In this document: positions 16,010 to 40,920 of the stretch, in pieces | Layout of the letters: every line of letters begins with the position of its first letter | How positions within the stretch are numbered: position 1 is the first letter of the stretch | Origin: a virus | IMG/VR virus record: IMGVR_UViG_3300043783_000034 | Coordinates: 9,922 to 73,921 of that record | DNA length: 64,000 bases | Reading direction: 5' to 3' (one strand) | Position numbers and translations under genes: made by a program | Notes under the pieces: model-generated | Told to the model about the DNA's origin: nothing | Database searches by the model: none | Seen by the model: the letters and a program-made list of their open reading frames with translations, nothing else

Positions 16010-17317
16010 ATGCTCACGAAGCTCCGGGTTGGCATTGCCGCCGTCGCCATCCTCGCCGCAGTGCTGCCCGCGAAGTCGCAGACCACCGTCCTCGACTTGG
16101 TCCCCATTCCGCTCCCGGGCACGAGCAACACCACGCTCAATTCGGAAATGCTCGTGCAGAGCCTCGCGGTTACGGGCGGCACGCTTTTCATCGTTACCAT
16201 TCGGCAGCCGGGCGCCGGCGGCGCAATCCTTGGTTCAACCGCATCCTTCGCCGCGTCCGCAAATGCCGCGATCACGCCCGCGTCGATCACCGGCAGCGTG
16301 GCGCCTTTTCCAATTGCTGGCCTCGCAGCTGCGCAGGGAGGCGCCGTCACCGTCACGGGCGGCGCCTCTTCGACGTCAGCCAATGCTGGCGGGGCCGTTG
16401 ATCTGACCGGCGGCGCGCCGGGGGCGACCGGCGTTGGCGGCGCCATCGTCATCGCCGGCGCAGCCGGCGGAACGACATCGGGCGCGGGTGGCGCTGCGAG
16501 CGTCACGGGCGGCGCTGGCACGGCAGGCAACTCGTCGGGCGGCATTGCTTCGCTGGTCGGCGGCGCCGGCCAGGGCACCGCGAACGGCGCCCAGGCGCAG
16601 GTCACGGGCGGCGCTTCGGGCGCTGGCCCGACCGGAGCCGGTGGCGCGGTCGTCATCGCCGGCGGCGCGGCGGCTTCGACGAACGGCGCGGGCGGCGCGG
16701 CGTCGCTGACGGGCGGTGCGGGCGTCGGCACCGGCAACGGCGGCAACGCGACGGTGGCGGGCGGCGCGGCAGGCGCGACCGGTACCGGCGGCACTGTTGC
16801 GATCACTGCGGGCTCGCCCACGGCTGGCAACGGATCGAGCGTCACCGTGACCGCATCGGCGGGCGCCGGCGGCACCAACGGCGGCGGCAGCATCAACCTC
16901 GTGCCAGGCGCGGCGGTCTCGACCGGCGCTCCGGGCACCGTGCAGGTCAACGGCAATGCCGGCCTGATCTGCCACAACGGGACCATTGCCACCGGCTCGG
17001 CGTCGACCACGATCTTCATCGCGACGCGGGCGATGCTAATCGAGCAAATCAGCGCAATCTGGTCGGCGGCGGCGGGCGGCACCAGCACAGCGGGCGTCTA
17101 TCACGACACGGGCACCAACGCGCCGGGTGGTGGCACCGACATGCTCTCGGCCGACTTCAACCTCAACACCACCGCGAACACCACGAACACCGGCTCGCTG
17201 TCGGCGACCGTGGCGACGCTGATGCTGGCTGCTGGCGATCGCATTTCGGTCAAGATGAACAATGCCATTCAGTCGACCACTGGCTTAAACTTCACTTTCT
17301 GCGCGGCGCCGCAATAA
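16010..17317 (+). CDS. Gly-rich fibre-like protein with signal peptide
   Basis: MLTKLRVGIAAVAILAAVLPAKS-Q signal-like N-terminus; ~13 GGxVxIxGG repeats; C-terminal beta domain bracketed by two Cys. Confidence 0.75.
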   Translation: MLTKLRVGIAAVAILAAVLPAKSQTTVLDLVPIPLPGTSNTTLNSEMLVQSLAVTGGTLFIVTIRQPGAGGAILGSTASFAASANAAITPASITGSVAPFPIAGLAAAQGGAVTVTGGASSTSANAGGAVDLTGGAPGATGVGGAIVIAGAAGGTTSGAGGAASVTGGAGTAGNSSGGIASLVGGAGQGTANGAQAQVTGGASGAGPTGAGGAVVIAGGAAASTNGAGGAASLTGGAGVGTGNGGNATVAGGAAGATGTGGTVAITAGSPTAGNGSSVTVTASAGAGGTNGGGSINLVPGAAVSTGAPGTVQVNGNAGLICHNGTIATGSASTTIFIATRAMLIEQISAIWSAAAGGTSTAGVYHDTGTNAPGGGTDMLSADFNLNTTANTTNTGSLSATVATLMLAAGDRISVKMNNAIQSTTGLNFTFCAAPQ

Positions 17318-17381
17318 GGAGGCGCTTAAACCCAATTCCCACGACAGCCTCGCGGGATCTCACCAGGGGGAACCTGACACC

Positions 17382-18011
17382 ATGAAGCGCGCTTTTCTTC
17401 TCCGGAATGCCGCCGTTGCCGCAATGGTGATGGCAAACCCGCATCTTGGCGCCGCAAAGTCGGCACCGTCTGGCCTGCAGCATCAGCAGCGCCAGTTGAT
17501 GCCGACTTGGCAGCAGGTCGCCCAAATCCAGCAGATGGCGAACTACGAAGCGCCGATTCTGCAAGGCACTGTCGCCACGACCTACAAGAGCAGCGCCCTT
17601 GTCTATTCGTCCGGCTCGCGCCGCATCATGGCGTACGAAATCGAGTTCGGTCAGTCGGGCGCCCTGTCGTCGACGGACTGCCAATGCCAGTGGGACGTCT
17701 CGCGCTTTTCCTCGACGAACATCCTCACCGCCACGTCGGTCGTTCCCAACCCGCTCGATCCGGCGGACGGCACTTGCCTCGCGCTGTTCCTCAACAACGC
17801 GACCACGGAACTCACCTACACGACCGCCGGCGTCGGCCTGTCGCTCAAGAATTGGGGCATCAACCAGCGCGGTTCGTACCGCTGGCGCGCGTTGGACGAT
17901 GGCGACAACCTCATCATTCCGGCGACGAACCTCGTCGGCCTCGGCATCCGGACGCTGAGTTCCAATTTCACCGGTAGCGCAGTTGGCAACCTCTCATTCG
18001 TTGAAAGGTAA
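17382..18011 (+). CDS. beta-rich putative virion filament/appendage subunit
   Basis: AGGGGG RBS, followed by a strong terminator; VPNPLDPAD and NQRGSYRW motifs; alternative start at 17535. Confidence 0.6.
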   Translation: MKRAFLLRNAAVAAMVMANPHLGAAKSAPSGLQHQQRQLMPTWQQVAQIQQMANYEAPILQGTVATTYKSSALVYSSGSRRIMAYEIEFGQSGALSSTDCQCQWDVSRFSSTNILTATSVVPNPLDPADGTCLALFLNNATTELTYTTAGVGLSLKNWGINQRGSYRWRALDDGDNLIIPATNLVGLGIRTLSSNFTGSAVGNLSFVER

Positions 18012-18038
18012 GCGTTTCCGCGCTTCTGTGATCGAACC

Positions 18039-18068
18039 AAAGGGCCCCCTTTCCGGGGCCCTTTTTTT
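18039..18068 (+). terminator. Rho-independent terminator
   Basis: AAAGGGCCCC-CTTTCC-GGGGCCCTTT stem-loop with a T7 run. Confidence 0.85.
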
Positions 18069-18085
18069 GTGTCAAAGACGCACTT

Positions 18086-18397
18086 ATGTCGCGCGATGGT
18101 CCCTTGCTCAAGAACAGCCCTGAATGGAAGATTCCGCATGGCCCATCGATCCGCGCCGGTGGTCTTGGTGAGTATTTCAATCCGGACGGGACGATCACCG
18201 AGGTCTATTCGAGCACCTGCAGCCATTGCCAGCACGTCACCGAGTTTCCGAATCGGCGAAAGATGTTTGAGCATGTCGACGTCTGTCGCGGCTGCATGAA
18301 ATTGATTTGCCTCGGCTGCGCCGGTAAGCCTTGCGTGACTTGGCTCAAGAAGTGCGACATCGAGGAAGCGGTCGCGCGACGAAAGATGTTGGGATGA
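18086..18397 (+). CDS. Cys-rich Zn-binding protein
   Basis: CSHC, CRGC, CLGC and further Cys. Confidence 0.7.
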   Translation: MSRDGPLLKNSPEWKIPHGPSIRAGGLGEYFNPDGTITEVYSSTCSHCQHVTEFPNRRKMFEHVDVCRGCMKLICLGCAGKPCVTWLKKCDIEEAVARRKMLG

Positions 18398-18879
18398 GCG
18401 ACAGGTGCATCACCTGCGCCCGCTGGCTTGTGCGGCAGGAAACTGTCTACAGCGACGGGACGACAATCGTTCGGTGGCGGGCGTCCAGCGGCCACGGAAA
18501 GTGCCGGTTCTTGAACATTGAGACGCCGGCTGAGTTTGGGTGCGCAAAGTTCGAGCAAGCGCGTCATAGTTCTGAGGCAAAAGTGTTTTTTGAAGTGCAA
18601 GTCGAGACAGAGCGCAAGGACGGCGCTCCATGGCAACACTTCACGATGATCGAATGCCCCGCGTGCAGTGGGCGCCCGGGACTAGGCGAGGCCGGCCGGT
18701 GCAAATGCGCCGGCACCGGAAAGACACGCCTCTATGACGACGGCTATGTCGGCGACGAGCACACTCGCAAGCACCCGAAGGAACTGGAACGGCCGCCTAT
18801 CGCGGTCGAGCCCGGCACCATCTTGCAGGCGCTCCCCGAAAAGGCGCCAGCGGCCCTGTGGAATGAAATCCCGCAATGA
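18394..18879 (+). CDS. Cys-rich Zn-binding protein
   Basis: CITC, CPAC, CKC; ATGA coupling at both ends. Confidence 0.7.
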   Translation: MSDRCITCARWLVRQETVYSDGTTIVRWRASSGHGKCRFLNIETPAEFGCAKFEQARHSSEAKVFFEVQVETERKDGAPWQHFTMIECPACSGRPGLGEAGRCKCAGTGKTRLYDDGYVGDEHTRKHPKELERPPIAVEPGTILQALPEKAPAALWNEIPQ

Positions 18880-19664
18880 TCAGGGAAATGCCGCACCGGT
18901 ACGGGCCTCACCCGATCTACGTCCCTGATACGGACAACGGGCAATATGCGTGGCTGCTGACCACCCAGGCGTCGCCCGAGGACGAATGGATTGACTTGGT
19001 CCTCGCCCTGATGGCGCTACGTCCTCGGGGCGTGGCGCTGGACGGGGGTGCGAACTTCGGGTGCTGGACGGTAGCCCTCTCCACGGAGGCCTATCAGGTA
19101 CACGCCTTCGAGCCCCAGCGGCAGGTCTGCGGGCTACTGCGCCGGACAGTTCGACCGCTCGGCAACGTATTCGTTTACCAGAAGGCGATCGGCGAGCATT
19201 CCGGGCTCGCCCGCATCCCGGATCTCGACATGATCAACGGGACAAACTTCGGCGGCGTGAGCATGAATATGGCGCACTGGGAGTACCCCGACGCCCCGAT
19301 GCAGATGGTCGCCGTGGCCACCATCGACAGCTTCGACTTCCAAGACGTGTCATTCATCAAGGTCGACGTCGAAGGCGAAGAGGCGTCCGCACTTGAGGGC
19401 GCGCGCGATACCATCAAGCGATGCAAGCCGATCCTGTTCATTGAAGCGCTGTTCAAGGGCACGGACGATCTGTCAGATGAGGCGAAGCACGAGCGCGCCA
19501 TCAAACGGGCCCGAAAGCTGCAAGACACAATCGAGGCGATGGGATATGCGGTGGACCATCGCGGCCCGAACTATCTCTGCTTGCCGCTTGTGAGGGACAA
19601 ATGCCTGCCGACCTCAACGCCATGGTGGAATCGGCCCGCGCCGCCGTTGAGAGCGACCAAGTAG
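18876..19664 (+). CDS. FkbM-family SAM methyltransferase
   Basis: LDGGANFG, HAFEPQ, NFGGVS, FIKVDVEGEE, KPILFIE. Confidence 0.88.
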   Translation: MIREMPHRYGPHPIYVPDTDNGQYAWLLTTQASPEDEWIDLVLALMALRPRGVALDGGANFGCWTVALSTEAYQVHAFEPQRQVCGLLRRTVRPLGNVFVYQKAIGEHSGLARIPDLDMINGTNFGGVSMNMAHWEYPDAPMQMVAVATIDSFDFQDVSFIKVDVEGEEASALEGARDTIKRCKPILFIEALFKGTDDLSDEAKHERAIKRARKLQDTIEAMGYAVDHRGPNYLCLPLVRDKCLPTSTPWWNRPAPPLRATK

Positions 19665-21280
19665 CCGCTGCCGGCGTTTTCTACCGATCGATCCTTCGGG
19701 AAACATCGCCCCCCAAGACGGCGACGGAGCGAGTAGCTCACGGCGAGGCATGCTGGTTCAATGGCCGCCTGGCGCTCGCCCGCGGCAAACTGGGCGAAGC
19801 GGCCGACTGGTACAAAGAAGCACTCGACGCCGACCCGCGTGCGACCGACTACCGCATCGAGTTCGTCATCCGGTGCCTGATCCCCATGGGCGCGCTCAAG
19901 GACGCGAGGATCGAGGCCGAGCGCGCGACGCGCATCGATCCGCACCACCCGATGGCTTGGCGGACACTTGCGAGCGTCGAGCATTCCATGAGCAATGCCG
20001 AAGGCGCCATTGCGGCCTATGACAGGCAGCTTGAGCTTCTGGATGCGGGAACGCCGGAATACGCGAATGCGCTGGTCGATCGGATATCGATCGCGATCGA
20101 CACCGCAGATTATGTGACCGTCCGGCGCCTATGTGATCGCGTGATGGGCACCGAGCGTCAGGCCGATGCGCTGCACTGCCTCGCGATGGCGGCCTACCGG
20201 GAGGCCGAACACGAGAAGGCAATCGAGTTATTCGACGCAGCGATCGCTGGCGGCTGCTACGACCCGGCGCTTGCGCGCTGGAACAAGTCGCTTGCCCTGC
20301 ACGCAATCGGCCAATGGGAAGAGGGCTGGTCCGATCACGAGCAGCGCGGCAAACAGAGAACCGACCGCGCGATGGCGCTGATGATGAATCGCTTCGTGAT
20401 GCCGATATGGGACGGCGAACCGGCACCGGCACGGCTTCATGTACATCAGGAAATGGGATCAGGCGACGTCATCGCGATGGCGCGTTATCTGCCGATCTTG
20501 GTTCGCCACGGCTATGACGTTCGGCTCGAAGTCAACGAGCAGATGGTCGACCTGATGCGCGCGAGCCTTGACGGCGTAACCGTGATGGCGAAGGCGCCAG
20601 ATTACCCGGGCGCATTGGGCATTCCGCCGTTCGACTACCACGTGCCGATGCTCTCGCTGCCGTATCTGTTTAAAACGACGGTAAACACTGTGCCAACTTG
20701 GATGCCATACTTGAAGGCGCCGACCAATTTTCTGAGATTCCAAAACCCAGGGCTCAAGGTCGGCCTATGCTGGTCATCAGGCATTCGCGACGGCGGAGTG
20801 TGGCTTCGCGAATACGGGATGCGCAAGTCCATGTCATTTGACGATTTACAGCCACTCATCAAGGCAACCGACCACCAAATACAATTCTTCTCACTACAGA
20901 TCGGTCCGGAGCGCAGACAAGTAGCGTGGCCCGTCTATGATATTGTTTTGCCCAAAAAACCCACTTGGGGCGAAACGGCCGATCTCATCGCGCAACTCGA
21001 TCTTGTCATCACCGTCGACACATCGGTGGCGCACCTCGCTGGCGCCATGGGCAAGCCGGTGTGGGTCATGGCGCAGCGCGACTGTTCGTCGTGGCACTTC
21101 ATGTGCTGGCGCCCTGACGCAGTATGGAACGACCGCAGCCCGTGGTATCCTTCGGCGCGCGTCTTCCGCCAGCACCGGTTCAACGAACCGCACAAGTGGG
21201 ACGAAGTCGTCGAGGACGTGACCAAGGCGCTCATCGAATGGGCCGACGCGCAAAGGGCAAATCTCGACGCCGCTGAATAA
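19601..21280 (+). CDS. TPR-repeat glycosyltransferase (GT-B, GT9/GT41-like)
   Basis: N-terminal TPRs; EMGSGDVIAMARY, FDYHVPMLSLP, LDLVITVDTSVAHLAGAMGKP, SPWYPSARVFRQ. Confidence 0.88.
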   Translation: MPADLNAMVESARAAVESDQVAAAGVFYRSILRETSPPKTATERVAHGEACWFNGRLALARGKLGEAADWYKEALDADPRATDYRIEFVIRCLIPMGALKDARIEAERATRIDPHHPMAWRTLASVEHSMSNAEGAIAAYDRQLELLDAGTPEYANALVDRISIAIDTADYVTVRRLCDRVMGTERQADALHCLAMAAYREAEHEKAIELFDAAIAGGCYDPALARWNKSLALHAIGQWEEGWSDHEQRGKQRTDRAMALMMNRFVMPIWDGEPAPARLHVHQEMGSGDVIAMARYLPILVRHGYDVRLEVNEQMVDLMRASLDGVTVMAKAPDYPGALGIPPFDYHVPMLSLPYLFKTTVNTVPTWMPYLKAPTNFLRFQNPGLKVGLCWSSGIRDGGVWLREYGMRKSMSFDDLQPLIKATDHQIQFFSLQIGPERRQVAWPVYDIVLPKKPTWGETADLIAQLDLVITVDTSVAHLAGAMGKPVWVMAQRDCSSWHFMCWRPDAVWNDRSPWYPSARVFRQHRFNEPHKWDEVVEDVTKALIEWADAQRANLDAAE

Positions 21281-21293
21281 AGGGGATTCGACG

Positions 21294-21449
21294 GTGTGGC
21301 AATCGCAAGCGCTGGCGCCGTTGCCCGTCTCCCGGCCCGCAGGCCCTACTCTGCAATGGCATGACGTCAAGGTCGGCGGCGGCGGATTCACGCGCGATAT
21401 GGATATCGCGCCGGACGCAGTCTCTTGGTTAGAGACAGACGGCTGCTGA
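21294..21449 (+). pseudogene. 51-aa relic resembling the start of a GH74-like beta-propeller
   Basis: AGGGGA RBS, GTG start; LQWHDVKVGGGGFTRDMDIAPD then an early stop. Confidence 0.45.
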
Positions 21450-21485
21450 TTCCGCGCAGGGCCGCCTAAATCAGGGAACGGAGCA

Positions 21486-23981
21486 TTGCCTGCTTCTATT
21501 GTCAGCATCGGCTCCAACTCGACGGTCGTAACCGGCAAGGTCACGATCACCCTTTCGGCTGCGGTGCCGGCTGGTGCTCAGATTGTCGTCCTTGCCTCTT
21601 ATAATTCGACGGGCAATGCAGGAAGCTGTGCTGACTCTGGCAGCAATACCTATTCAAGCGGGCCATTCGCGAACAATAATGGCAACGCTACTCTCGGCAC
21701 ATTGGCATCTTATATAGCGACGGCTAATGCCGGTCTTGCAAATGGAGGTACAATTACCTTTACATTGCCGAGCGGCGCAACATTGGCATCGGTTGCGGCT
21801 GTTTATTTGCTCGGCGTAGTGACCGGCACTCTGTCCCAAAGCAATAGCGGCAGCGGAGTAGGCACCAACCCCAGTATTTCCACTGTCGCCAATGTGCAAT
21901 CCGGTCAGGCCGCCGTCGCGGCTGTTTCCGGATCGTCGCTCATCACTTCCTTTACTCAGGACACCGCTGATGGCTGGTCAAGCCCAATCGGCGATGTATC
22001 CAATGCCGCACCCGTTTTGGCTGGTGGGTCGCAGGTTATCCCAGCGTCGGGAAGTTTGACTTACGCGCCGACTTTCGGCTCGTCCGATAATTGGGCGGCG
22101 GTCATCCTTATTTTTCTGCCGTGGACGAACTGGATACCGGAAGATCATCTGAAACCCAATCAGCACCCGCGCCCCGAGCGCAGCGGCGCCTTGCAGATCG
22201 GCGAAGGCAATATCAGCGGCACAGAATATCCGATCATACAGTGGTTCAATTACGGGTGGCCGGTCCAGCCCCCGATGATCCGACATCCCATGCCAGAGCG
22301 CGCCGGATCGATCATGCCATTGTCGCAGATCGATACGCTTTTCCCGTGGTCGCTTTTCGGATGGGAGCCATATTCGGTCACCTACGCAAAAGTAGGCGTA
22401 CGAGCGCGGCTCGTGCAGGCGCCGGATATCGGTGCGTACGTCGCGCCACCGCCCTTTACGATTTACCGCAGCGAGATCCAATCCTGGCAGTCGCCGCACC
22501 CGCGCCCGGAGAAAGGAGGCTCGCTTGCTGGCGGCGACTTCGGCGTTACTTTTCAGCAACTGCTTCCCCAATTCTATCAGGGATGGGAAGTGCTGCTCTG
22601 GCAGCCGCCGCACCCGCGCCCGGAGAAGGGCGGATCGATCGCGCGCGGCGACGACGGTACCGAGGCCAAATTCCAGTTCGTGCCTCCGTCCTTCATTTGG
22701 GCGGCCGAAGTTCAATATTCCTACGTGCTGCCGCGCCAGCCGATGCCTCTGCGAGATCCAGCGTGGCGGGTTGATAACGGTGCCGATTGGCCGACCCGTC
22801 CGTGGCTGTTCATGGGGTTCGAGGTACAGCAGCCCCCACCGCCGCATCCCCGGTCGGAACGGTGGGCAGCAGTCTTCCCAGAAGATGACGGTATCGAGGC
22901 GCCACTGTATCGATGGCAGAATTATGGGTGGCAGATCGAGCCACCATCGCCACCGCATGTGCGCTTCGAGCGCGCCGCCGGCGTGCTCCCGATCGTCAAC
23001 CCGGACGGCACGTTGCCCCCGTTCTATCAATGGGGTTGGGAAAACGCGCCGGCGCTGCCGCCGCATCCGCGCCCCGAGCGATTCGGCGCCAATGCCCGTG
23101 GCGATGATGGCACCGAGCTCAATCTCGCATTTTGGGTCACCGCCGGTCGTGGGTCGCAGGACTTCCAGCCCCCCCACCCGCGCCCGGAACGCGCGGGATC
23201 GACCCTCAAGGGCGACGAAGGAATCGAGGGCATCTATCATTTCGTAACGGCACCCTTCGCTTGGTCACTCGACGTCCATTACGCCTACCCGCATCGACCA
23301 TTCCGCGATGCCTCCTGGCGCGGCGACGATGGCGCGCAGGGCTTGTTCTCGCAGTGGATAAACGTCGGCTGGGAGCCGACGCCGCCGATGCTCTACTTCC
23401 CGCGCCAATGGCGCGCGGGCGCAACGATGCGCGGCGATGATGGCAACGAAGGTCGCTATCAGTTTTGGGTCAATCGCGGGTGGGAGGAGACCACCGTCGA
23501 CATTCCGCGGCGCCGCGTCGAGCGCGTTGGCACGCTTCCTGGCGACGATGGCATTGAGGCGCTCTACAAGCCCTTCATTCCAATCTTTACGTGGTGGTTC
23601 CCGTACCAACCACAGCGCATTCCCTTCAATCGGGAGGCCGCTATTGCGGCCGGTGACCACGGCACGGAATTGCCTTTCGTCCCGCCGTTCGTCGGCGGCG
23701 GAAAATTGTTCGAACCTCCGCAATATTGGCGCGCACGGTCGAAACTGGATGTTCCCCGGTGGGAAGAAGGCACCGAAGCGCCAATGCAGCAGCAGCCGAT
23801 CACCGGCTGGGACGGTACACCACCTGTGCTGCAGATACCGTGGTTCAAGTTCGCGGCCGCCTTCATGGCGGGCTCGCCGGGCATCGACGCCGTGTACTAC
23901 GTGCCGGTCTTCTATGCGAAGACGACGATCACGTGGATGCGCGGCGTAACCGTGGTAAAAGGCGAGTGGTCACCAGATTGA
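21486..23981 (+). CDS. large protein: N-terminal beta-sandwich plus ~14 Pro/Trp-rich repeats
   Basis: GGAG RBS, TTG start; repeated PPHPRPER..G....GDDG.E...GWE units. Confidence 0.8.
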   Translation: MPASIVSIGSNSTVVTGKVTITLSAAVPAGAQIVVLASYNSTGNAGSCADSGSNTYSSGPFANNNGNATLGTLASYIATANAGLANGGTITFTLPSGATLASVAAVYLLGVVTGTLSQSNSGSGVGTNPSISTVANVQSGQAAVAAVSGSSLITSFTQDTADGWSSPIGDVSNAAPVLAGGSQVIPASGSLTYAPTFGSSDNWAAVILIFLPWTNWIPEDHLKPNQHPRPERSGALQIGEGNISGTEYPIIQWFNYGWPVQPPMIRHPMPERAGSIMPLSQIDTLFPWSLFGWEPYSVTYAKVGVRARLVQAPDIGAYVAPPPFTIYRSEIQSWQSPHPRPEKGGSLAGGDFGVTFQQLLPQFYQGWEVLLWQPPHPRPEKGGSIARGDDGTEAKFQFVPPSFIWAAEVQYSYVLPRQPMPLRDPAWRVDNGADWPTRPWLFMGFEVQQPPPPHPRSERWAAVFPEDDGIEAPLYRWQNYGWQIEPPSPPHVRFERAAGVLPIVNPDGTLPPFYQWGWENAPALPPHPRPERFGANARGDDGTELNLAFWVTAGRGSQDFQPPHPRPERAGSTLKGDEGIEGIYHFVTAPFAWSLDVHYAYPHRPFRDASWRGDDGAQGLFSQWINVGWEPTPPMLYFPRQWRAGATMRGDDGNEGRYQFWVNRGWEETTVDIPRRRVERVGTLPGDDGIEALYKPFIPIFTWWFPYQPQRIPFNREAAIAAGDHGTELPFVPPFVGGGKLFEPPQYWRARSKLDVPRWEEGTEAPMQQQPITGWDGTPPVLQIPWFKFAAAFMAGSPGIDAVYYVPVFYAKTTITWMRGVTVVKGEWSPD

Positions 23982-23988
23982 GGACGCA

Positions 23989-24330: not shown

Positions 24331-24334
24331 TGCC

Positions 24335-24724: not shown

Positions 24725-24726
24725 TT

Positions 24727-25299
24727 ATGCGCAAGCTATACTTGGCTGCTGCGACATGGATTGCCCTCACGGCAATGGCATGGGCACAGGGCGCCACTGG
24801 CCTCCTGATCCAGCCTCTCGGTTATTGCCAGCTTTCCGCGACGCAGCTTTCTTCGGCGATCGGCCTTGCCTCGTGCACGCGGGCAAGTTTTACCGGCACC
24901 GGATCGGGTACGAACCTGACGACGACAAGCGTCACGGGAATCATCAAGGTCGGCGATACGGTGACGGGAACGGGCGTGCCTTCGGGGACGACGATTCTCT
25001 CGCAGACCAGCGGCACCGCTGGCGGCGCCGGCGTCTACGTGACCAGTGCCACGACTACATCATCGAGTGCCAGCCTTACGTCGGGCGGCATCCCTTCGCG
25101 AGCTAATCTCGTGGCGCTACAAGCCGAAACGGCCAACGTGCGCTACCGCGATGATGGCGGCGCACCCACGGCCTCGATCGGGGAAATTATCGTCAGCGGG
25201 CAGCAACCATTCCTGTATTCGGGGACACTGTCGACACTCCAATTCATCGCGGCAAGCGGCAGCCCGCTTCTTGACGTGCTGTTCTATTATTCGCCATGA
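24727..25299 (+). CDS. small virion-type protein with signal peptide and inserted Thr/Gly module
   Basis: MRKLYLAAATWIALTAMAWA-Q; PLGYCQ...VRYRDDGGAPTAS.G core. Confidence 0.72.
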   Translation: MRKLYLAAATWIALTAMAWAQGATGLLIQPLGYCQLSATQLSSAIGLASCTRASFTGTGSGTNLTTTSVTGIIKVGDTVTGTGVPSGTTILSQTSGTAGGAGVYVTSATTTSSSASLTSGGIPSRANLVALQAETANVRYRDDGGAPTASIGEIIVSGQQPFLYSGTLSTLQFIAASGSPLLDVLFYYSP

Positions 25300-25376
25300 C
25301 GTTTCTGCAAATCTTCGCGCTTTACTGCATTCCATCCTTGCTCGTGGCGTTGCTCGTGGTATTGCGCGCTTAAATC

Positions 25377-26129: not shown

Positions 26130-26229
26130 GTCTTCTTGGCTCGCTACTCCCCTGACGCACTAGCACTTTCGCGGTCGCCCGCTATGGTCAACCCGGCTCG
26201 CTGTGGCAGCCAGGGGAGCGCCGCCGCCC

Positions 26230-28227
26230 ATGTCCTCAATCCCGTCCCAAGAAATTGTCAATACACAGGGCACGGTACTGGCGGCCGGCGGTGCGGGACT
26301 CCAATTCAACGGCCTTTTTCTGACGAACAACACGCGCGTGCCGATCGGCACCGTGATGCAATTCGGCAGTCTTGCCGCAGTCCAGCAATACTTCGGCGCA
26401 TCGTCCGTCTTTGCAGCGCGTGCGGCGGTCTATTTCACCGGCCCGGCCAATGCGACGCAGACGCCGCAAGGCCTTCTCGTCACGCAATATCCGTCGACGA
26501 ATGTCGCCGCCTATCTCCGGGGCGGCAATATCTCGGCGCTGCCGCTCGCTACGCTGCAGACCTACAATGGCACGCTCTCCGTCACCATCAATGGCAGCCT
26601 TAAGTCGGCGGCCATCAACCTCGCCACGGCGGCAAGCTTCTCGAATGCGGCCGAACTCATCGGCCAAGGCCTCGGTATTGAGGGCCAGCAAGCGGCAACC
26701 TTCACGGCCTCGGTCGGCGGTACGTTCACGTGTACGTCCACCGGAACGACACTCAACGTCTCTGCGGTTCTGACGGGCAGCCTACAGTCCGGCGACATCG
26801 TCAGTGGCACCGATGGCACGAACTCGCTGCCGGGCGGCACGCAGATCATATCGCAGCTCACCGGCACGCCTGGTGGTGTCGGCACGTACCAATTGAGCGC
26901 GGCGGCGACGCCGGGGAACCTCGGCAGCTGCACCGTCACGTCGCTATCGACTGTGCTCAATGTCACTGCGATCGCGAGCGGCGCCCTCGCCACGGCCGAC
27001 GTCGTGACCGGCACCAGCATTCCCGCAAATACGTACATCACCGGCCAGATCTCCGGGACGACGGGCGGCATCGGCACGTATGGCCTGAGCGGCACCGGCC
27101 ACACGATCGCCAGCGAAGCGATGACGGCCTTCGGGCCGGGCGTGGTCTACGACAGCATTTCCGGTGCCTTCGTGATCAATTCGAGCACGGCTGGCGCGAC
27201 GTCGACGATCACCTTCGGATCGGGCGCGCTCGCGACGAATCTACTGCTCACCCAGGCGACCGGTGCGGTACTCTCGCAGGGCAGCGCTCCAGCGACGCCG
27301 GCCGCGTTCATGACCGCTATCCTGTCGCAAACCGTGAACTGGGTCTGTTTTGCGACCGATTTTGATCCCGACGGCGGCTCCGGGAATGCGCAAAAGCAAC
27401 TGTTTGCGGCGTGGAAAAATACCGCGCTCGGCGGCAATCGCTTCGCATATGTTTGCTGGGACAACGACGTCACGCCAACCGTCAGCGTGCCGGCGACGGC
27501 AAGTCTCGGTTACATTCTCGATCAGAACGGGGACTCGGGAACGGCACTCATCTGGGAGCCAGCTGGCGCCGTCGGAGACGCTGATTACTATTCCGCCTTT
27601 GCGATGGGTTGGGCGGCTTCGATCAATTTCAGTGCGCCGAATGGTCGATCAACGCTCGCATTCAAGAATCAAGCTGGCCTCGTGCCAACGGTTTCTGATC
27701 CGCTTACGGCGCAGAACCTCGGCGGCAATCCGCAGGCGCCCGACAGCTTCGGCAACGGGTATAGCTTCTATGGCGCTTACGGCACGGCCGGTCAGAGCAA
27801 TACGTGGTTCCAGCGCGGTTTTATCACCGGGCCGTACGAATGGTTCGACGGATACGTCAACCAGATATGGCTGCTGAACCAATGCCAGATCGCGTTGCTT
27901 ACCGCATTCGGCAATCTCACTTCGCTGCCGTTCACGACCGCCGGCCAAGGCATCATCAGCGAGGTATTGCAGCCGTCCATCCAGGCGGGACTAAGCTTCG
28001 GCGCCTTCGGCCCTGGCCCGCTCACGACCTCGCAACAGGCGCAGATCAATCAGCAGGCCGGCGCGAACATCGCCGCGACGATCTCGGCGCAAGGCTGGTA
28101 TCTCCAGTTCATCGCGGCGTCGCCAGCGGTCAAGGCCTCGCGTGGGCCGCAGCAGCTCGTACTATGGTATCTCGACAATGGCGTGATCCAGTCGATCAGC
28201 CTGACCAGCGTCGCCGTCGTGGGCTGA
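26230..28227 (+). CDS. tail sheath protein, DUF3383 family
   Basis: SIPSQEIVN..GTVLAAGG, AAYLRGG, NGYSFYGAY, WFDGYVNQIWL. Confidence 0.88.
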   Translation: MSSIPSQEIVNTQGTVLAAGGAGLQFNGLFLTNNTRVPIGTVMQFGSLAAVQQYFGASSVFAARAAVYFTGPANATQTPQGLLVTQYPSTNVAAYLRGGNISALPLATLQTYNGTLSVTINGSLKSAAINLATAASFSNAAELIGQGLGIEGQQAATFTASVGGTFTCTSTGTTLNVSAVLTGSLQSGDIVSGTDGTNSLPGGTQIISQLTGTPGGVGTYQLSAAATPGNLGSCTVTSLSTVLNVTAIASGALATADVVTGTSIPANTYITGQISGTTGGIGTYGLSGTGHTIASEAMTAFGPGVVYDSISGAFVINSSTAGATSTITFGSGALATNLLLTQATGAVLSQGSAPATPAAFMTAILSQTVNWVCFATDFDPDGGSGNAQKQLFAAWKNTALGGNRFAYVCWDNDVTPTVSVPATASLGYILDQNGDSGTALIWEPAGAVGDADYYSAFAMGWAASINFSAPNGRSTLAFKNQAGLVPTVSDPLTAQNLGGNPQAPDSFGNGYSFYGAYGTAGQSNTWFQRGFITGPYEWFDGYVNQIWLLNQCQIALLTAFGNLTSLPFTTAGQGIISEVLQPSIQAGLSFGAFGPGPLTTSQQAQINQQAGANIAATISAQGWYLQFIAASPAVKASRGPQQLVLWYLDNGVIQSISLTSVAVVG

Positions 28228-33511: not shown

Positions 33512-33632
33512 CCTTCTGACATTCGATGAGGCTCATCGCCTTCTCGAATACCGCCCTTTAATGGGAGACTTTTCGGCAGCTTATTGGCGCGAGGCCCAGA
33601 AGCAATTCGGCGAGTTTGCGAGGCTTCGGTAA
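33510..33632 (+). pseudogene. internally deleted HNH-AP2 homing endonuclease relic
   Basis: LTFDEAHRLLEYRPLMGDF (typical N-terminus) joined directly to AAYWREAQKQFGEFAR (typical C-terminus). Confidence 0.62.
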
Positions 33633-34009
33633 TGGCTGCAACACTTTTGCTAGACCGTTCCACGTGGGATCTTTGCCTCGATGCGCAAGGGAATATAGCC
33701 GTGGCGACGGCTCCATATGCCTTGGCTCAAGATGCGGCCAGCGCAATCATGACAGTCTTGGGAACCTGCTGGTGGGATACGACCGTCGGCGTGAACTGGT
33801 CGCAATTCCTCGGCGCCACGCCACAACTCGCGCCGCTCAAGGCCGCACTCATCGCGGCGGCGCTCACGGTGCCTGACGTTGCCTCGGCACAAGTCTATTT
33901 CAATTCGATCACAGATCGCATTGTGTCCGGGCAGGTGCAGATCACAGCCGAGTCGACGGGACAAACCGCCGTCGCGCCATTCCAGGTCGTCAATCCGCAG
34001 GGAGTGTGA
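33632..34009 (+). CDS. baseplate wedge (gp25-like)
   Basis: TLLLD...WDLCLDA.GNIA.A..PYALAQD.ASA. Confidence 0.78.
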   Translation: MAATLLLDRSTWDLCLDAQGNIAVATAPYALAQDAASAIMTVLGTCWWDTTVGVNWSQFLGATPQLAPLKAALIAAALTVPDVASAQVYFNSITDRIVSGQVQITAESTGQTAVAPFQVVNPQGV

Positions 34010-34012
34010 GCC

Positions 34013-35677
34013 GTGGGCACGACCGCCGTACCTCCGATCACCTTTACTGCGGCCGGATGGCAAATCCCATCGGGCCCCGCGATCCTCGCTGGCGTGCAGG
34101 CGGACATTCAGGCCGCCTTTGGCGTCGCGCTCGATTTCAATCTCAACACGCCGCAGGGGCAGTTGTCCTCAAGCGAAGCGGCGAACATCAACAACACGTA
34201 CCAAACCTTCGGCTATTACACGCAGCAGGTCGACCCGGCCTATGCGAGCGGCCGCTTTCAGGACGCGATCGCGCGCTTCTATTTTCTCACGCGCAATGCG
34301 GCCCAGCCGACCACGTTGCAGGTAAATTGCTTCGGCCTCGCGCAATTGATTCTGCCGACCGGGGCAACGATCATCGACGAGGCCGGCAACCTCTACCAAC
34401 TCACATCGTCCGTCACGATCGCTGCTGGCGGTAGCGTTGTGGGATCCTTCGCCTGCGCAGTGCCGGGTCCGGTTCCGGTGCCGGAGACAGATGACGTTTC
34501 GATCTATCAGCAAATTCCAGGCTGGGACTCGGTCGCCGTCGCGTCTGGCACACAGGGTGTGAACACGGAAGGGCGACAGGCATTCGAGCAGCGCCGACAG
34601 GATAGCGTTGCCGGCAACAGCTTTGGGCCAATTGGCGCCATCATCGGCGCCGTCGCGCAAGTACCGAATGTCACTGATTATTTCGGCTACAGCAACAATA
34701 CGGCGGCGCCCGTCACCGTTGGCGGCGTCTCGATCGCCGCAAACGCGATTTACATTTGTGTTGCCGGCGGCGACCCGGTTGCGGTGGGGACGGCTATCCT
34801 GTCAAAAAAGGGGCCTGGCGCGCCGATGACCGGAACGACCCAGGTCACGGTCTACGACACGAATCCGCTTTATGCGTCTCCTGTCCCCTACACCATCAAA
34901 TTCCAGGTCGCGGCACCGCTGCAGCTTCTTTTTGAGGTCGAACTCGTCGCTTCTCCGCTGATTCCATCGAATGCGATCCAACTCGTTCAGGCGGCGCTTA
35001 TTGCCGCAGTAACGCAAGGCATTCTGCCGAACGGCGCCGCGCAGCAGGTGCTCTCTCCGGGTCTGCGCGCGCGCATCAATTCGGTGATCTACGCGCAACA
35101 ATATACACAAGCCATCAATCAGCTTGGCGCTTGGGGCCTCGTTGCTTCGATTCAGATTGGCTCGGAGAATACGCCGGGCGCCGTGGTGACAGGCACAATC
35201 TCTGGAACGGTCCTCACGGTCTCGGGTGTAACATCGGGTACACTCGCGGTCGGCCAAGCGCTTTTCGATCCGCTCAACGACATCATCAACGGCACGGTCA
35301 TCGTATCGCTGGGCAGCGGCACGGGAGGCACCGGAACCTACAACGTCAACAACTCGCAAACCGTTGGCGGCGCGACTTTTACAGGCACCGGCTCAGGCTT
35401 CAATCTCACTGCCAGCAGCGTCACAGGCGTCATCGGCAGTGGGGACGTCATCAGCGGAACGGGCGTGCCGTCTGGCACCACCATCATTACTCAGACGTCC
35501 GGAACGCCCGGCGGCGCTGGTGTCTATGTCACGAGCGCCTCGACCACTTCGTCCGGCGCCACCATTACCACCAGCAAGACAATCTCGGCCGCCTCGGCCA
35601 ATCAGACGCTCGTGTCAGTTCAGGCCAACCAGGAGCCGCAACTCGTGGCGGCTAATATCGTCGTGACGCAGACATGA
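34013..35677 (+). CDS. baseplate J/gp47-like protein with two inserted modules
   Basis: [29 protein letters not shown]. Confidence 0.85.
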
Positions 35678-36345
35678 CCTTTCCGGGTCCTCCGGTGCCG
35701 CCGCCGCCGGCGCCGGGCTCGAATGCGATCGGCAAATTCCAAATCGGCACGAGCCCGATCGGAACGATTCCCCCGTTCAACACGTGGGAAACGATCATCG
35801 ACGAGTACGCGACTTCGCCGATCATCACAGGCATTGCGGCATCGTTCGGTACAGCCGCAGATATGACCGCGGCATTCGACCTGTTTTTTGACAGCCAGTG
35901 GAATCCGGACACGGCATCAGGGCCCGGTCTTGACGTCATCGGCCGCATCGTTGGCGTGACGCGCACCCTGCAGATCAGCGGCGAGGCTGGACCATTTTTA
36001 GGATTCGAGGAGGCGGATGATCCGGACGACGTCGGCTTCAACCAGGCGCCGTTCTATACCGGCGGTCAGTTGACACAGAATTTCCAACTTCAAGACTCCG
36101 ACTTCCGCAAATTGATAAATGCCAAGATGCTTTTGAACATCTGCGACGGCTCGATTCCGGCGATCAACAACATTCTGCTGACACTCTTTCCAAACCGTGG
36201 TCCTTGCTATGTGACGGATGGGTTAAACATGACGATGACCTATACATTTGCCTTCACGCCGACTGCTATCGAACTTGCGATCCTGCAGCAATCGAATGTG
36301 CTGCCGACACCGGCCGGGGTCGTTGCTACGCTCGTCTACCCGTAG
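35674..36345 (+). CDS. DUF2612 baseplate wedge protein
   Basis: TII.EYA.SP, TA.G.GLDV.GRIVGV.R, LPTPAGV. Confidence 0.85.
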
Positions 36346-36415
36346 CGCCGTCTCTGACGTACTTAGCGGGCGTGCGAGGCTGTGAAATAAACGCTTCTCA
36401 AAGAGGGGCCAACTC

Positions 36416-37924
36416 ATGAATCGCCTGATCTCGGTATTCGCCGCGCTGGCGATGCTCGCCACTCCAGCGCTCGCGATCGACGAGTCTGCCGTCCCACCGA
36501 AATTCTCCATTCCGTGGGGCAATAACGCCGGCGCTGCCTATATCCGATCGATCCCGACTGCATCACAAATCGGCATCCAAAATTGTGCGGCGTCGCTCAC
36601 CGACGGCTTTCCGCCTCTGAGTTTCCAGGCCTCCGCATCAGGCGGTTGCCCGCCGTTCGGCCAGGACTTCAATGGCATCCTCAAACAGGTCACACAATGG
36701 GGCCAGTGGCAGGCCGCAGGTGGCCCGCTTGTTTTCGATAATACATTCGCCGCGAATATTGGCGGTTATCCGAGACAAGGAACGCTATCGAATGCGACGA
36801 CGCCGGGATGCTGGTGGGTCTCGCAGATCGATAACAATCTCGGCAATCCGGACGCCGGCGCGCTGAATTGGCTCAATACGTGCGCACTCGGCGGCGTGCT
36901 CTCGGGCACGCCATACAATGCGAGCATCGTTGCCAGCGGCGTCACGCCGAGCGCCTATGTGGCGCCGACCATCACGGTTGGTGCAGACGGACGTCTCATC
37001 GCCGCGTCTGGTATCGCCTCGAGTTTCATGCCGTCGAATGTGTCGATTTCGGCAACGGTCGCATCGAACAATCTCACCATTGCGCTCACCCAAACGAATG
37101 GCGCAGCGATCGGGTCGATTCCCTATTCGGCGAACGGAGCGCAGCTCGGTCTGCCGCTTGCGTCGACGTCGAGTTTTACGGTCCCCAGTGGCAATACGAT
37201 GGGCTGCGTCAGCGGCCAGGCCTGCCGCCTATGGGTGATCGCCGGCGCACAGAGCGCGAGCATATTCACGTGCGCCTACAATGCGACGAGCGGCACGACC
37301 GTCGTGCCCTTGATCGAGGGCCATTCCTATGTATCCGGTAGCGGTTCGGGCGGCGGCTCGTCGGCGCAAACGCTTTATTGCAATTCGAGCAGTATCACCG
37401 CGGCCGTTCGGTACATCGGCTATATTGAAATCGTTCAGACGTCGGGTCTGTGGTCGGCGAATCCGAACTTCGTAATGATCACGGGCCCGAGCGGCCCGAA
37501 GCCCGCCGATGTCGTGCGGCATCAGTACGGGCAGTTTGGCGCCACCACTGCGATTTCCAATGGAAGCTACATAGCGACCGCGACGTCGGTCGCATTGTTT
37601 CCCAGCAGCGCCGCAAATCTGATCCGCATTTCAGTAAGCGGCTCGATCAGTGCGATCTACAACGGCACGTCGAACGGCCTTGAAGTGCAGATCCAGTTGC
37701 GGCGCAATACCTCGACGCAGGTCGGCATCACGTGGCCCGTCATCGGGCCGCCCTGCACCGGCTGCGCTAGCCAGAGCATCGGCTGGCAAATCGGCATCCC
37801 ACTGATCTACGATTCACCGGCCACCACGGCTCTGACCACGTACACGGTTTATGTTCAGGGCACCACGCTCGGTAGCGGAACATGGGAACCCAGTACTCTC
37901 ACTCTTGAGGAGATCATGGGATGA
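36416..37924 (+). CDS. tail fibre protein with N-terminal signal peptide
   Basis: Follows DUF2612; baseplate-anchor motifs ASLTDGFPPL, PP.GQDFNGIL, IGGYP; preceded by MNRLISVFAALAMLATPALA. Confidence 0.8.
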   Translation: MNRLISVFAALAMLATPALAIDESAVPPKFSIPWGNNAGAAYIRSIPTASQIGIQNCAASLTDGFPPLSFQASASGGCPPFGQDFNGILKQVTQWGQWQAAGGPLVFDNTFAANIGGYPRQGTLSNATTPGCWWVSQIDNNLGNPDAGALNWLNTCALGGVLSGTPYNASIVASGVTPSAYVAPTITVGADGRLIAASGIASSFMPSNVSISATVASNNLTIALTQTNGAAIGSIPYSANGAQLGLPLASTSSFTVPSGNTMGCVSGQACRLWVIAGAQSASIFTCAYNATSGTTVVPLIEGHSYVSGSGSGGGSSAQTLYCNSSSITAAVRYIGYIEIVQTSGLWSANPNFVMITGPSGPKPADVVRHQYGQFGATTAISNGSYIATATSVALFPSSAANLIRISVSGSISAIYNGTSNGLEVQIQLRRNTSTQVGITWPVIGPPCTGCASQSIGWQIGIPLIYDSPATTALTTYTVYVQGTTLGSGTWEPSTLTLEEIMG

Positions 37925-40920
37925 TGCGCCGCCTCGCGCTCGCCGCGCTCGCGCTCGTGCTGTGGTGCTCGGGCGCGCTGGCGCAATCGTCCTGCACCAT
38001 CGGTGGCATCAACATTTTCGCGCCCGGGGTCATTCCAACGCCGGGTCAGTGGGCGCAATGCTTAGAGTCCAAGCAGGACTTTCTCGGATCATCCGCGCTT
38101 GCCGTAACCAACGTCTTTGGCACCGCGCCGATCACGGTCAATGTCGCCGGGACGATTGTCACAATCGGGATCTCAAACGGCGTGAGCGTCGTCAATCCCG
38201 GCACTGGTACGCTTGAGACGGTGTTTCCGATTCAGACGGTAGCGGGCGCAAGCAAGACCTTCGCGACCGCCGACCTGTTCAAGGAAACCCGCCGGTCGAA
38301 TTCCGGGTCGGCGATGACCGATACCTTTCCGGCTGCGACTGTCACCGGCATAGTGTCCGGCACGCGGATCACCGTCACGAACGTGGATGCGACTGCGACC
38401 GATACAATCACGGCCGGTTCTGGCACTACGATCTCCGGCAATGCCACCTATGCGGTTGGGCCCGGGCGCGCGGTGCAGTTCGCGTATGATCTGGCTAATA
38501 CGGAGTGGCGCCCAACACTCAACACCGGCGATGCGCTGCTCGGGCCGAACAATCTCAATGACGTTTCTAATCGCGCAACGGCGCTCGCCAACTTGATGCC
38601 GACGCCAACGCGCGCCGGCGATATCGTGTATTGGAATGGCTCGAACTGGGTCACGCTCGCTGGCAATAATTCCGGTACCCAGTGCCTCGTCGAGAACTCT
38701 TCTGGGTCCCCGACTTGGACGAACTGCGGGCCAGCCGGTTCATCTGGGCAAGTGCAGACCAACTCTGGCAGTGGGTCTTTTGCAGCGCTTACCAACACGC
38801 AGCTTACAGCGCTCATCAATGTTGCCACCGCGAGCCTGTCTGGCGCCCTTCCGGCATGGCCAAACACCACTACAACGTATTTTCGTGGCGACGGTACGTA
38901 TCAAACACTGAACCCAACTGCGGTCGGCGCGCTCGCAATTTCCAACAATCTCAGCGATGTCGCCAGCAAGACGACCGCTCAGAACAACCTGTTTCCATCG
39001 CCAACCCGGGCCGGCGATATCGTGTATTGGAATGGCTCGAACTGGGTCACGCTCGCTGGCAATAATTCCGGTACCCAGTGCCTCGTCGAGAACTCTTCTG
39101 GGTCCCCGACTTGGACGAACTGCGGTTGGGCGATCAATGCGGTGCAAACCTATGGGGCGGTCGGCGACGACAACACCGACAACACGGCGGCGATGACATC
39201 CGCCATCAATCAGGTCAATTCCGTCGGTGGATTTGTAGCGTGGCCGGAAGGCTCATATCGTTACAACTGCGCGAGCACTCCAGCCATCACGGCGACGGGT
39301 GGCGGATTTATCGGCGTCGGATCAGGCTCGGCCTATACGTCGCAGAACACTGGACCATCGGGCGCGGCTCACGGCACGATTTTCCGCTGCACGAGCGCCA
39401 CCGCCAATTCGCTGACGACGGGCGGATCAATCGGTTTTGCGATTCGCGATATTGGCTTTTGGCCGGTACCGTTTAAAACCGGCGGCTTTGAAATACAGGA
39501 TGGCGGAACCAACACGATAATAGATAACGTTAGCTGCTCGTACGTCAACGGATGTATTTTCTTTGGCGGCGGGTCAAATGGAAGCTCGGCCCGTCACACG
39601 CGATGTTTCGGTGTTTTCGGATCGACCGGATGCGTGATGACGCAAGGGTCTTCATCCGCAATCGCCAACTGGGCGCAAGGCATTCTGGTCGACGACATTA
39701 TCGCATATAATCCTTGGCCTGTTTCTGAACCCGGCCAAACGGCATCTATCAATGCAAGCTGGACGGCAGGCGCGACCTACGCGACAGGCGCGATCGTCAT
39801 AAACGGCAATTATGTCTTTCAGGCGATCACCGGCGGTGTTGCGGCTGCAAGCGGAGGAGGTCCGGTTCCTCCATCATATAGTTTTGCCGGCGCCCCAACG
39901 ACGACCGGAATTACGGACAATACCGTCGTCTGGCATATGACAGAGGCGGCGCAGGCCGGGGCCGTGAATGTAGATTCGAACTCCGTTAACATCACGATCA
40001 GCAATGCGCAATTGCTGACGTTTTTTTGGGGCCTCATAGTTGAAAATACGCTATCGTCAAGTCAATACCCTCAGGATGTAACCATTTCACTGTACTTGGT
40101 AGACAGCACGTTAGGCGACAGCATTTTCGCTCCCGCCGGCTCGCGGCTTAGCATACTTGACGGTCGCATGCACGAATCCGCTATTGGGCGTGGATTCACC
40201 GGTGGAGCGGGCTTCACTGGCGGACTGCTCATCCGCGGCAATCACGTTTGGAAAGCGGCGCTTAATGGCATCCAGTTGCCGCCGATTACAAATTGTATTT
40301 GCACCGTGGTCGACAACGTGATTGCGGGTAATGGCGCCAAAACGTCAAATACCTATGCCGGTATTCTTATCGGGTCATCGACAACCAAAGTCACGGCGCG
40401 TGGAAATACGATAGGCCCGGACGCGGCGGGCGGCGGTACGCAGTCGTATGGCATGACGATAGATGCCGGCAGCGACAGCCTTGAGATTGATCACAACAAC
40501 CTGTGCGGCAACGGCACGGGTGGGATGTTGAACGGTGCGACGACAGTGAACAGCGTCATCGTCGACAATCTTTGTTATAACCCGGTTGGTGTCACGGCAG
40601 CCGCAAATGTCGGCACATCGCCAGCTACGATCACGAACGGCGCGACGCCGGCGACGCATTACCTCAATCAATCAGCCACCAATACTGCAACCGTCGCCAA
40701 AGGCGGCCGCGCCGTCGCGACGCTCGCGGGCTCGTCAACCTATTACCCAATCCAGCTCGGCCCGAACGAGAGCTACACGGTGACGTGGAGCACGACGCAG
40801 CCGACTTACACCGCTGACGTGCATCTGCGCGACGACGCGTTTGCCGCGCGAATGCTCGATGTGGCGAACGATAACGAGGAAATTTTCTACAAGGCCGCGC
40901 GGCGGTCAAATGGACGGTGA
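37921..40920 (+). CDS. tailspike with right-handed beta-helix (pectin-lyase fold) and signal peptide
   Basis: MMRRLALAALALVLWCSGALA-Q; NNLSDV repeats; YGAVGD..TDNTAA...WPEGSY beta-helix cap; Asn-ladder repeats. Confidence 0.82.
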   Translation: MMRRLALAALALVLWCSGALAQSSCTIGGINIFAPGVIPTPGQWAQCLESKQDFLGSSALAVTNVFGTAPITVNVAGTIVTIGISNGVSVVNPGTGTLETVFPIQTVAGASKTFATADLFKETRRSNSGSAMTDTFPAATVTGIVSGTRITVTNVDATATDTITAGSGTTISGNATYAVGPGRAVQFAYDLANTEWRPTLNTGDALLGPNNLNDVSNRATALANLMPTPTRAGDIVYWNGSNWVTLAGNNSGTQCLVENSSGSPTWTNCGPAGSSGQVQTNSGSGSFAALTNTQLTALINVATASLSGALPAWPNTTTTYFRGDGTYQTLNPTAVGALAISNNLSDVASKTTAQNNLFPSPTRAGDIVYWNGSNWVTLAGNNSGTQCLVENSSGSPTWTNCGWAINAVQTYGAVGDDNTDNTAAMTSAINQVNSVGGFVAWPEGSYRYNCASTPAITATGGGFIGVGSGSAYTSQNTGPSGAAHGTIFRCTSATANSLTTGGSIGFAIRDIGFWPVPFKTGGFEIQDGGTNTIIDNVSCSYVNGCIFFGGGSNGSSARHTRCFGVFGSTGCVMTQGSSSAIANWAQGILVDDIIAYNPWPVSEPGQTASINASWTAGATYATGAIVINGNYVFQAITGGVAAASGGGPVPPSYSFAGAPTTTGITDNTVVWHMTEAAQAGAVNVDSNSVNITISNAQLLTFFWGLIVENTLSSSQYPQDVTISLYLVDSTLGDSIFAPAGSRLSILDGRMHESAIGRGFTGGAGFTGGLLIRGNHVWKAALNGIQLPPITNCICTVVDNVIAGNGAKTSNTYAGILIGSSTTKVTARGNTIGPDAAGGGTQSYGMTIDAGSDSLEIDHNNLCGNGTGGMLNGATTVNSVIVDNLCYNPVGVTAAANVGTSPATITNGATPATHYLNQSATNTATVAKGGRAVATLAGSSTYYPIQLGPNESYTVTWSTTQPTYTADVHLRDDAFAARMLDVANDNEEIFYKAARRSNGR
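38614..39125 (+). repeat. perfect 116-bp direct repeat (38614-38729 and 39010-39125)
   Basis: Copies identical when read base by base; offset 396 bp, in frame. Confidence 0.92.

Follow-up and report, generated by a model that had tools for sequence, protein, structure and literature searches.

A tail fibre of a contractile-tailed phage, together with the spike-like protein encoded beside it, appears to be made with a cleavable Sec signal peptide, suggesting that parts of the particle could be folded in the host periplasm. We analyzed a 64,000-nucleotide (nt) stretch of viral DNA (the window), which corresponds to bases 9922-73921 of IMG/VR virus record IMGVR_UViG_3300043783_000034, with attention to four open reading frames (ORFs) named here by their start positions: 16010, 24727, 36416 and 37921. 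An earlier note, made from the sequence alone, had observed that these ORFs begin with signal peptides and had interpreted their products as virion appendages that are exported, disulfide-bonded and joined to the particle at or after lysis. The observation is confirmed by our analysis and the interpretation is partly supported. That the leader is real, maintained by selection and cut at the ancestral N-terminus of the fibre is strongly supported by comparisons among relatives, and export followed by folding with disulfide bonds is very probable for 36416, 37921 and 24727. To the complete route, comprising export, periplasmic folding and joining of the particle at lysis, we assign a probability of roughly 0.55.

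The four ORFs and their predicted parts are as follows.

36416-37924, + strand: tail fibre precursor of 502 amino acids (aa), matching PHROG 12796/38625/1396 from residue 23
36416-36475, + strand: leader of the fibre, residues 1-20 (called by the heuristic described below), with the mature part following from 36476
36476-36895, + strand: baseplate-anchor domain of the fibre, residues ~21-160, holding Cys57/Cys78 and Cys132/Cys156
36416, distal part: variable, with six more Cys
37921-40920, + strand: tailspike-like protein of 999 aa, its start overlapping the fibre stop (ATGA)
37921, residues 1-21: leader
37921, residues 22-400: fibre-type modules
37921, residues 401-999: right-handed beta-helix plus C-terminal domain
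24727-25299, + strand: small leader-bearing protein of 190 aa between head-completion gene 24335 and tail terminator 25377, comprising the leader (residues 1-20), a 60-aa Thr/Gly module and a ~70-aa C-terminal domain, with the conserved Cys pair PLGYC...LASC
16010-17317, + strand: Gly/Ala/Thr-rich protein of 435 aa, its leader spanning 21-23 aa and its C-terminal domain holding two Cys

The 36416 product is supported by its sequence and position as the tail fibre of this phage. Its gene directly follows those for the baseplate J-like and DUF2612 wedge proteins, in the tail-fibre slot that the earlier note had recognized after DUF2612, and retains the anchor domain; the same gene order is found in phages Adzire, PE067, Orisa01 and phiAO1 and in related loci. 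The match to PHROG 12796 covers residues 23-327 (E 1.5e-22), and 163 deposited phage records match residues ~21-153, with matches beginning at residues 21-32. A PDB sequence search with the anchor gave only a marginal match, to the N-terminus of a tailspike depolymerase (24qi, E 0.033). The anchor domain is encoded only once in the genome, in 36416, so that if this protein is exported the phage has no cytoplasmic substitute fibre.

Leaders were called with a heuristic of our own that combines n-h-c organization with the residues at positions -3 and -1. By this measure all four N-termini carry a basic n-region, an uncharged hydrophobic run and a small-x-small site, with cleavage predicted at ALA↓ID in 36416, ALA↓QS in 37921, AMA↓WA or AWA↓QG in 24727, and LPA↓KS or AKS↓QT in 16010. 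Each ORF starts with ATG preceded at 8-13 nt by a ribosome-binding site of the GAGG/GGGAG type, and G+C content at third codon positions (0.67-0.82) is coding-like. The possibility, raised in advance as one that would defeat the idea, that the true starts lie downstream of the hydrophobic segments is countered by these ATG codons and Shine-Dalgarno (SD)-like sites. A wrong-start artefact was also rejected on the lack of a usable internal start and the retention of leaders in relatives of three of the four proteins; in 36416 the sole alternative start between leader and conserved domain is Met13, which lacks an SD sequence.

A census of 77 ORFs found no leader at the start of recognized capsid, portal, sheath, tube, tape-measure, hub, baseplate J or DUF2612 proteins, in agreement with what had been noticed before. 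The only further clear positives were 41185-41577, 41702-42040 and 44186-45133, all of which adjoin lysis genes and none of which the earlier note had listed. In the families of 36416, 37921 and 24727, what is conserved in the leader is its physico-chemical character and not its sequence. Leader length in the fibre family ranges from 15 to 30 aa (median 20); Ala occupies -1 in 107 of 108, and Ala or Val occupies -3 in 98 of 108. A Tat signal was considered and rejected, a twin-Arg being present in only 5 of the 108; the 37921 leader has RR, and its homologues mostly have KR, KK or RK. A lipoprotein signal was rejected as well (lipobox in 0/108). As judged from these features, the leaders are of the Sec/signal peptidase I type and not Tat or lipoprotein signals.

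The fibre family allows the same anchor domain to be compared with and without a leader. We assembled 120 best metagenomic homologues, 80 IMG/VR loci and 45 loci from GTDB genomes, which yielded 213 non-redundant anchor domains; a leader precedes 134 of them, and 79 are leaderless. Nearly all of the 120 best metagenomic homologues carry their own leader directly ahead of the conserved domain, differing in sequence while sharing the properties described above. The anchor domain in the leader-bearing fibre is kept at 55-68% identity, including residues that are invariant in leaderless virion fibres. More distant homologues of the anchor (37-48% identity over residues ~21-153) occur in phages of Ralstonia, Burkholderia, Pseudomonas and Acetobacter, namely Adzire gp46 (NC_054462), PE067 gp025 (KT803877), Orisa01 (PP179329) and phiAO1 (LC644971), where the fibre gene likewise follows baseplate J and a DUF2612-type gene. 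Unlike 36416, these four fibres are leaderless, and they start at, or at most nine codons upstream of, the beginning of the match (36416 residue 21-32).

With the invariant Pro in the SxxP-x-KF motif as reference point, 60 of 64 leaderless proteins have the start Met at -6; for 76 of 122 leader-bearing fibres the predicted cut falls at this same -6, and for a further 27 at -8. This agreement indicates that the leader was grafted onto the ancestral start, and that the mature protein would equal its leaderless counterpart. Just after the leader, 42 of the 122 retain the ancestral Met, and the others have Leu, Ile, Glu or Ala; among loci with DNA available the codons at this position include ATC, CTA, CTC, CTG, CTT and GCC. 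In 36416 it is ATC (Ile), and the leader contains no internal SD-like site. Because the Met has mostly been replaced by non-start codons, a general dual-start mechanism is unlikely.

Cysteines provide a second line of comparison. The mature parts of 16010, 24727, 36416 and 37921 contain 2, 2, 10 and 16 Cys, exactly as first counted, and a 17th Cys of 37921 lies inside its leader. The earlier emphasis on even numbers carries little weight, four even counts out of four being expected by chance once in 16. Two pairs lie in the fibre anchor. Among the 213 domains, Cys57 and Cys78 are both present in 124 and both absent in 88, with one alone in a single case; for Cys132 and Cys156 the figures are 55, 157 and 1. 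The first pair is found in 124 of 134 leader-bearing fibres versus 0 of 79 leaderless ones (Fisher p 9e-48, which is not a true probability given the few evolutionary events involved), and the second is confined to leader-bearing fibres. Alignment with signal-less homologues, as proposed in the note, thus shows the fibre pairs going with the leader. The Adzire, PE067, Orisa01 and phiAO1 fibres have no Cys at the four paired positions, again unlike 36416, with Gly or Arg and Val or Ile at those of the first pair in Adzire gp46 and PE067. On a tree built without the Cys columns, each pair has switched about nine times, always with both Cys together. These patterns strongly support the view that the fibre cysteines are paired.

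The spike-like gene 37921 begins within the fibre stop codon, which suggests that both genes are late and translationally coupled. A leader is present in 66 of 74 homologues. The AlphaFold2 (AF2) model of residues 401-999 is a confident beta-helix (predicted local distance difference test score, pLDDT, 91.5), for which Foldseek returned 180 PDB matches at E <= 0.001; the top matches are the AlgE4/AlgE6 epimerases and the tailspikes Fri1 gp49, Det7 gp208, Sf6, HK620 and CBA120. Tailspikes and AlgE-type enzymes (6c72, 6f7k, 2vbm, 4xn0 and 5w6f; 2pyg and 5lw3) share with this region the same right-handed parallel beta-helix (E 5e-10 to 4e-6). To our knowledge, the solved tailspikes have no signal peptide, unlike 37921. 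By sequence 37921 matched no PDB chain, and neither it nor 24727 matched anything in 50,697 phage records; its N-terminal 400 residues have matches only among uncultured proteins. Relatives of the beta-helix module carry a leader in 50 of 149 cases and are mostly ordinary leaderless phage fibres. In relatives of 37921 that share the motif, its first two mature Cys (C25/C46) are both present in five and both absent in six, with one Cys inside a leader set aside. Among related loci, the large gene next after the fibre carries a leader in 14 of 18 cases where the fibre has one and in 9 of 30 where the fibre is leaderless. Within 37921 we also observed a direct duplication of 141 nt (38589-38729 and 38985-39125, 95% identity, 396 nt apart), which repeats a Cys-containing fibre module of ~47 aa.

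The small protein 24727 belongs to a family of 409 homologues. The best 120 share 57-77% identity; a leader was called in at least 110 of these, and the mature Cys number exactly two in 105 of the 110. The Cys pair is C/C in 86 of 88 sequences in which the motif was found, and in two related complete phages the orthologue still has both leader and Cys and precedes the tail terminator. The Thr/Gly module (residues 53-112; 24883-25062) is 64% identical to baseplate J residues 454-513 (35372-35551) and 47% identical to sheath residues 190-236 (26770-26910), and it occurs also in tail terminator 25377 (PHROG 21413/38233 matches). Possession of this module in common with baseplate J hints at a role for 24727 on the particle surface. 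In a related complete phage (G003, locus L137, 8-1456), the late-operon gene immediately preceding the 24727 orthologue is a leader-bearing ORF of 482 aa, which from its sequence we read as a putative GH5-type glycanase.

Export of 16010 is plausible from its N-terminus. This protein has no Pfam or PHROG match and no homologue in five related phages or IMG/VR, and its C-terminal ~125 aa resemble small viral and cement-like proteins in the Atlas. In describing all four proteins as virion appendages, the earlier note overstated the case for 16010, which is an orphan, and for 24727, which is a conserved small neck-region protein; 36416 is supported as the tail fibre, and 37921 has a tailspike-type beta-helix. 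Gene 16010 is the first of an 8-kb cassette (16010-23981) located between neck gene 15427 and head-completion genes 23989/24335. Three further members of the cassette are listed here.

18876 (start): methyltransferase, PHROG 8156
19601 (start): TPR plus GT9-like glycosyltransferase
21486 (start): 831-aa protein with no family match

The cassette may be a protein-glycosylation or decoration module.

Bacteria that carry the fibre family all have a periplasm in which such proteins could fold. In GTDB genomes, leaderless copies were found in prophages of Rhizobium, Mesorhizobium, Methylobacterium, Paraburkholderia and others, and leader-bearing copies in a prophage of the cultured isolate Bradyrhizobium oropedii Pear76 and in a metagenome-assembled genome of Terracidiphilus (Acidobacteriota). 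The Pear76 locus has the order baseplate J, DUF2612, leader-bearing fibre and leader-bearing 557-aa protein. All named carriers are diderms.

On the route we favor, 36416, 37921 and 24727 would each be synthesized late, as a precursor carrying a cleavable Sec signal peptide, and would pass unfolded to the periplasm of a diderm host. Signal peptidase I would cut the fibre where its leaderless relatives begin, restoring the canonical baseplate-anchor N-terminus, and the exported proteins would fold and trimerize in the periplasm with disulfide bonds. No phage-encoded DsbA was found in the 73.9-kb genome. Fibreless particles would meanwhile be finished in the cytoplasm. Holin, GH25 endolysin and spanin-like proteins would then open the envelope, the compartments would mix, and the fibre would dock on the DUF2612/J wedge, whose leaderless proteins are its expected cytoplasmic partners. 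We infer the actual export, the dependence on Dsb and the docking at lysis, and for attachment to the particle at lysis the odds are about even. Joining of the particle is favored because the anchor domain is kept as the only copy, because the mature N-terminus is restored, because other myoviruses allow fibres to be added to finished particles, and because of a hint from Cellulophaga phage phi10:1.

That hint comes from annotations in GenBank records. The phi10:1 proteins gp091-gp094 (KC821618) all have Sec-type leaders and are annotated as structural on experimental tandem mass spectrometry evidence. Like the window proteins, they are consecutive tail-end late proteins with classic leaders, and phi46:3 gp082 (KC821622) is a similar one. 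These phages are unrelated, infect Bacteroidota and show no sequence similarity to the window proteins, and the records make no mention of leaders, their cleavage or an assembly route. The phi10:1 annotation is the only experimental hint of leader-bearing proteins in tailed-phage particles. The pectate lyase that follows, gp095 (locus L161, 11389-12879), has a hydrophobic N-terminus with Cys that may be a lipoprotein signal, although our heuristic made no call.

Parts of the proposed route resemble known phage systems. Signal-peptide and signal-anchor-release endolysins and spanins are late phage proteins that use host Sec and act in the periplasm at lysis; they differ in being lysis effectors and not particle parts, and none has a baseplate-anchor domain. 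The filamentous phage proteins pIII and pVIII are virion proteins with cleavable signal peptides, and the disulfides of pIII are formed by DsbA. Those phages are extruded through the membrane without lysis, whereas the head and tail here are standard cytoplasmic Caudoviricetes parts. The fibres of T4 and Mu are made separately and added last, and fibreless particles can be complemented in vitro, which makes docking after the compartments mix physically plausible. In T4 and Mu, unlike in the proposed route, both components are cytoplasmic. A limited search of open-access full texts found no description of Sec leaders on tailed-phage fibres.

Export need not imply incorporation into particles. 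The main rival to the route through the periplasm, which we consider unlikely, is that these proteins are not virion parts and serve instead as receptor-destroying or receptor-masking enzymes or decoys in or beyond the periplasm, where they may strip O-antigen or exopolysaccharide before lysis, block superinfection or keep progeny off debris. Llp, Cor and Lom are familiar examples of exported blockers encoded by phages. This explanation suits the spike better than the fibre, since the spike body folds like secreted AlgE4/AlgE6 as well as like tailspikes, leader-bearing spikes stand beside leaderless fibres in about 30% of such loci as well as in other phage contexts, and a related phage has a leader-bearing putative GH5-like enzyme in the same operon. 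For 36416, however, the explanation must account for an anchor domain preserved at 55-68% identity with its invariant residues, for a cut that recreates the canonical N-terminus and for the detection of leader-bearing proteins in Cellulophaga phage particles; moreover, with a single anchor-domain gene, the phage would be left with no fibre.

Two further explanations would retain a cytoplasmic fibre or dispense with export, and both seem improbable. The N-terminus might not be an export signal, acting instead as an uncleaved tether or assembly helix, being made when export is shut off late in infection, or reflecting a mis-called start. AF2 draws residues 2-14 of 36416 as a helix, though any signal peptide would give the same result. 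Against such accounts stand the ATG codons with SD-like sites, the near-uniform length and -3/-1 residues given above (15-30 aa, 107/108 and 98/108), the conservation of these properties while the leader sequence varies, the coincidence of the cut with the leaderless N-terminus, and the lack of any such segment at the start of recognized structural proteins. Marginally less probable still is that one gene yields two products, an exported form from the upstream ATG and a cytoplasmic particle fibre by re-initiation at the ancestral start. Phage lysis cassettes often contain dual-start genes, and the ancestral Met does persist in 42 of 122 fibres, but two thirds have a Leu, Ile, Glu or Ala codon there, 36416 has ATC and no SD-like site in its leader, and the restriction of the Cys pairs to leader-bearing fibres points to the exported form as the one under selection.

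Several observations weigh against the periplasmic route itself. The leader calls come from our heuristic and not from SignalP. The association of leader and Cys is phylogenetically clumped, with about ten leader changes and only three well-supported independent contrasts. The disulfide cannot be obligatory, since the first pair is missing from ten leader-bearing fibres. For 36416 the AF2 model is poor (mean pLDDT 56.6, and 42-58 around C57/C78), and Foldseek with this model gave nothing meaningful. In the beta-helix of the spike, Cys density is 1.36 per 100 aa in leaderless versus 1.50 in leader-bearing relatives; these Cys are therefore not diagnostic, and the suggestion that they are linked to the leader has to be dropped. 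Because leader-bearing spikes also occur beside leaderless fibres, the spike could be a free exported enzyme. For 16010, which has no relatives, the leader is seen in a single sequence. The phi10:1 proteins, once exported, could have co-purified with particles, and cleavage of their leaders is not recorded. Finally, the portal of the phage is at most 43% identical to that of any cultured phage.

The 73.9-kb source record is rated complete by CheckV, and the window has a GC content of ~61%. Structural genes resembling those of E217 and XM1 (Pfam and PHROG matches) indicate a contractile-tailed phage, for which no nucleotide match was found among cultured phages. Other genes of the window relevant to morphogenesis and lysis are listed below.

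4486 (start): portal
6671 (start): MuF
11226 (start): cement protein
15427 (start): neck protein
23989 and 24335 (starts): head-completion genes
25377 (start): tail terminator
26203 (start): sheath
28244 (start): tube
29327 (start): tape measure
31362 (start): hub
34013-35677, + strand: baseplate J-like wedge protein, leaderless (PF04865, PHROG 6)
35674-36345, + strand: DUF2612 wedge protein, leaderless (PF11041, PHROG 587)
41185-41577, + strand: leader-bearing coiled-coil protein of 130 aa, possibly spanin-like, between spike and endolysin
41702-42040, + strand: leader-bearing protein of 112 aa with four Cys, between spike and GH25 endolysin
42134-42925, + strand: GH25 muramidase of the lysis region, leaderless

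In the head module, ORF 8010-9461 fuses a NUDIX hydrolase domain to DUF2213, a head-protease or scaffold-type domain. In ORF 44186-45133, beyond the muramidase, the leader is found at an internal Met, and the C-terminus, which ends in YKF, gives a weak, sub-threshold match to the outer-membrane beta-barrel family PF13505 (E 0.0036). The ORF may encode an outer-membrane protein of a type common in Hyphomicrobiales.

Textbook tailed-phage morphogenesis takes place wholly in the cytoplasm. The leaders described here raise the prospect, for which we see the chances as evenly balanced, that a large group of tailed phages of soil diderms uses a two-compartment assembly, in which Sec-exported, disulfide-bonded fibres and spikes are added when lysis merges the compartments. 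The fibre family offers a clean test case, because leader-bearing and leaderless versions of one anchor domain exist and a leader-bearing prophage copy is present in a cultured Bradyrhizobium isolate. If the route is true, such genes would be mislabeled wherever gene callers and annotators trim hydrophobic N-termini or treat them with suspicion, and recombinant fibres or depolymerases of this kind would need periplasmic expression. Spikes present in the periplasm before lysis could remodel the surface of the dying cell, and disulfide-stabilized fibres may explain persistence in soil. Infectivity would hinge on host Sec and Dsb, making these systems and signal peptidase determinants of host range and resistance, and virions would mature only after the death of the cell.

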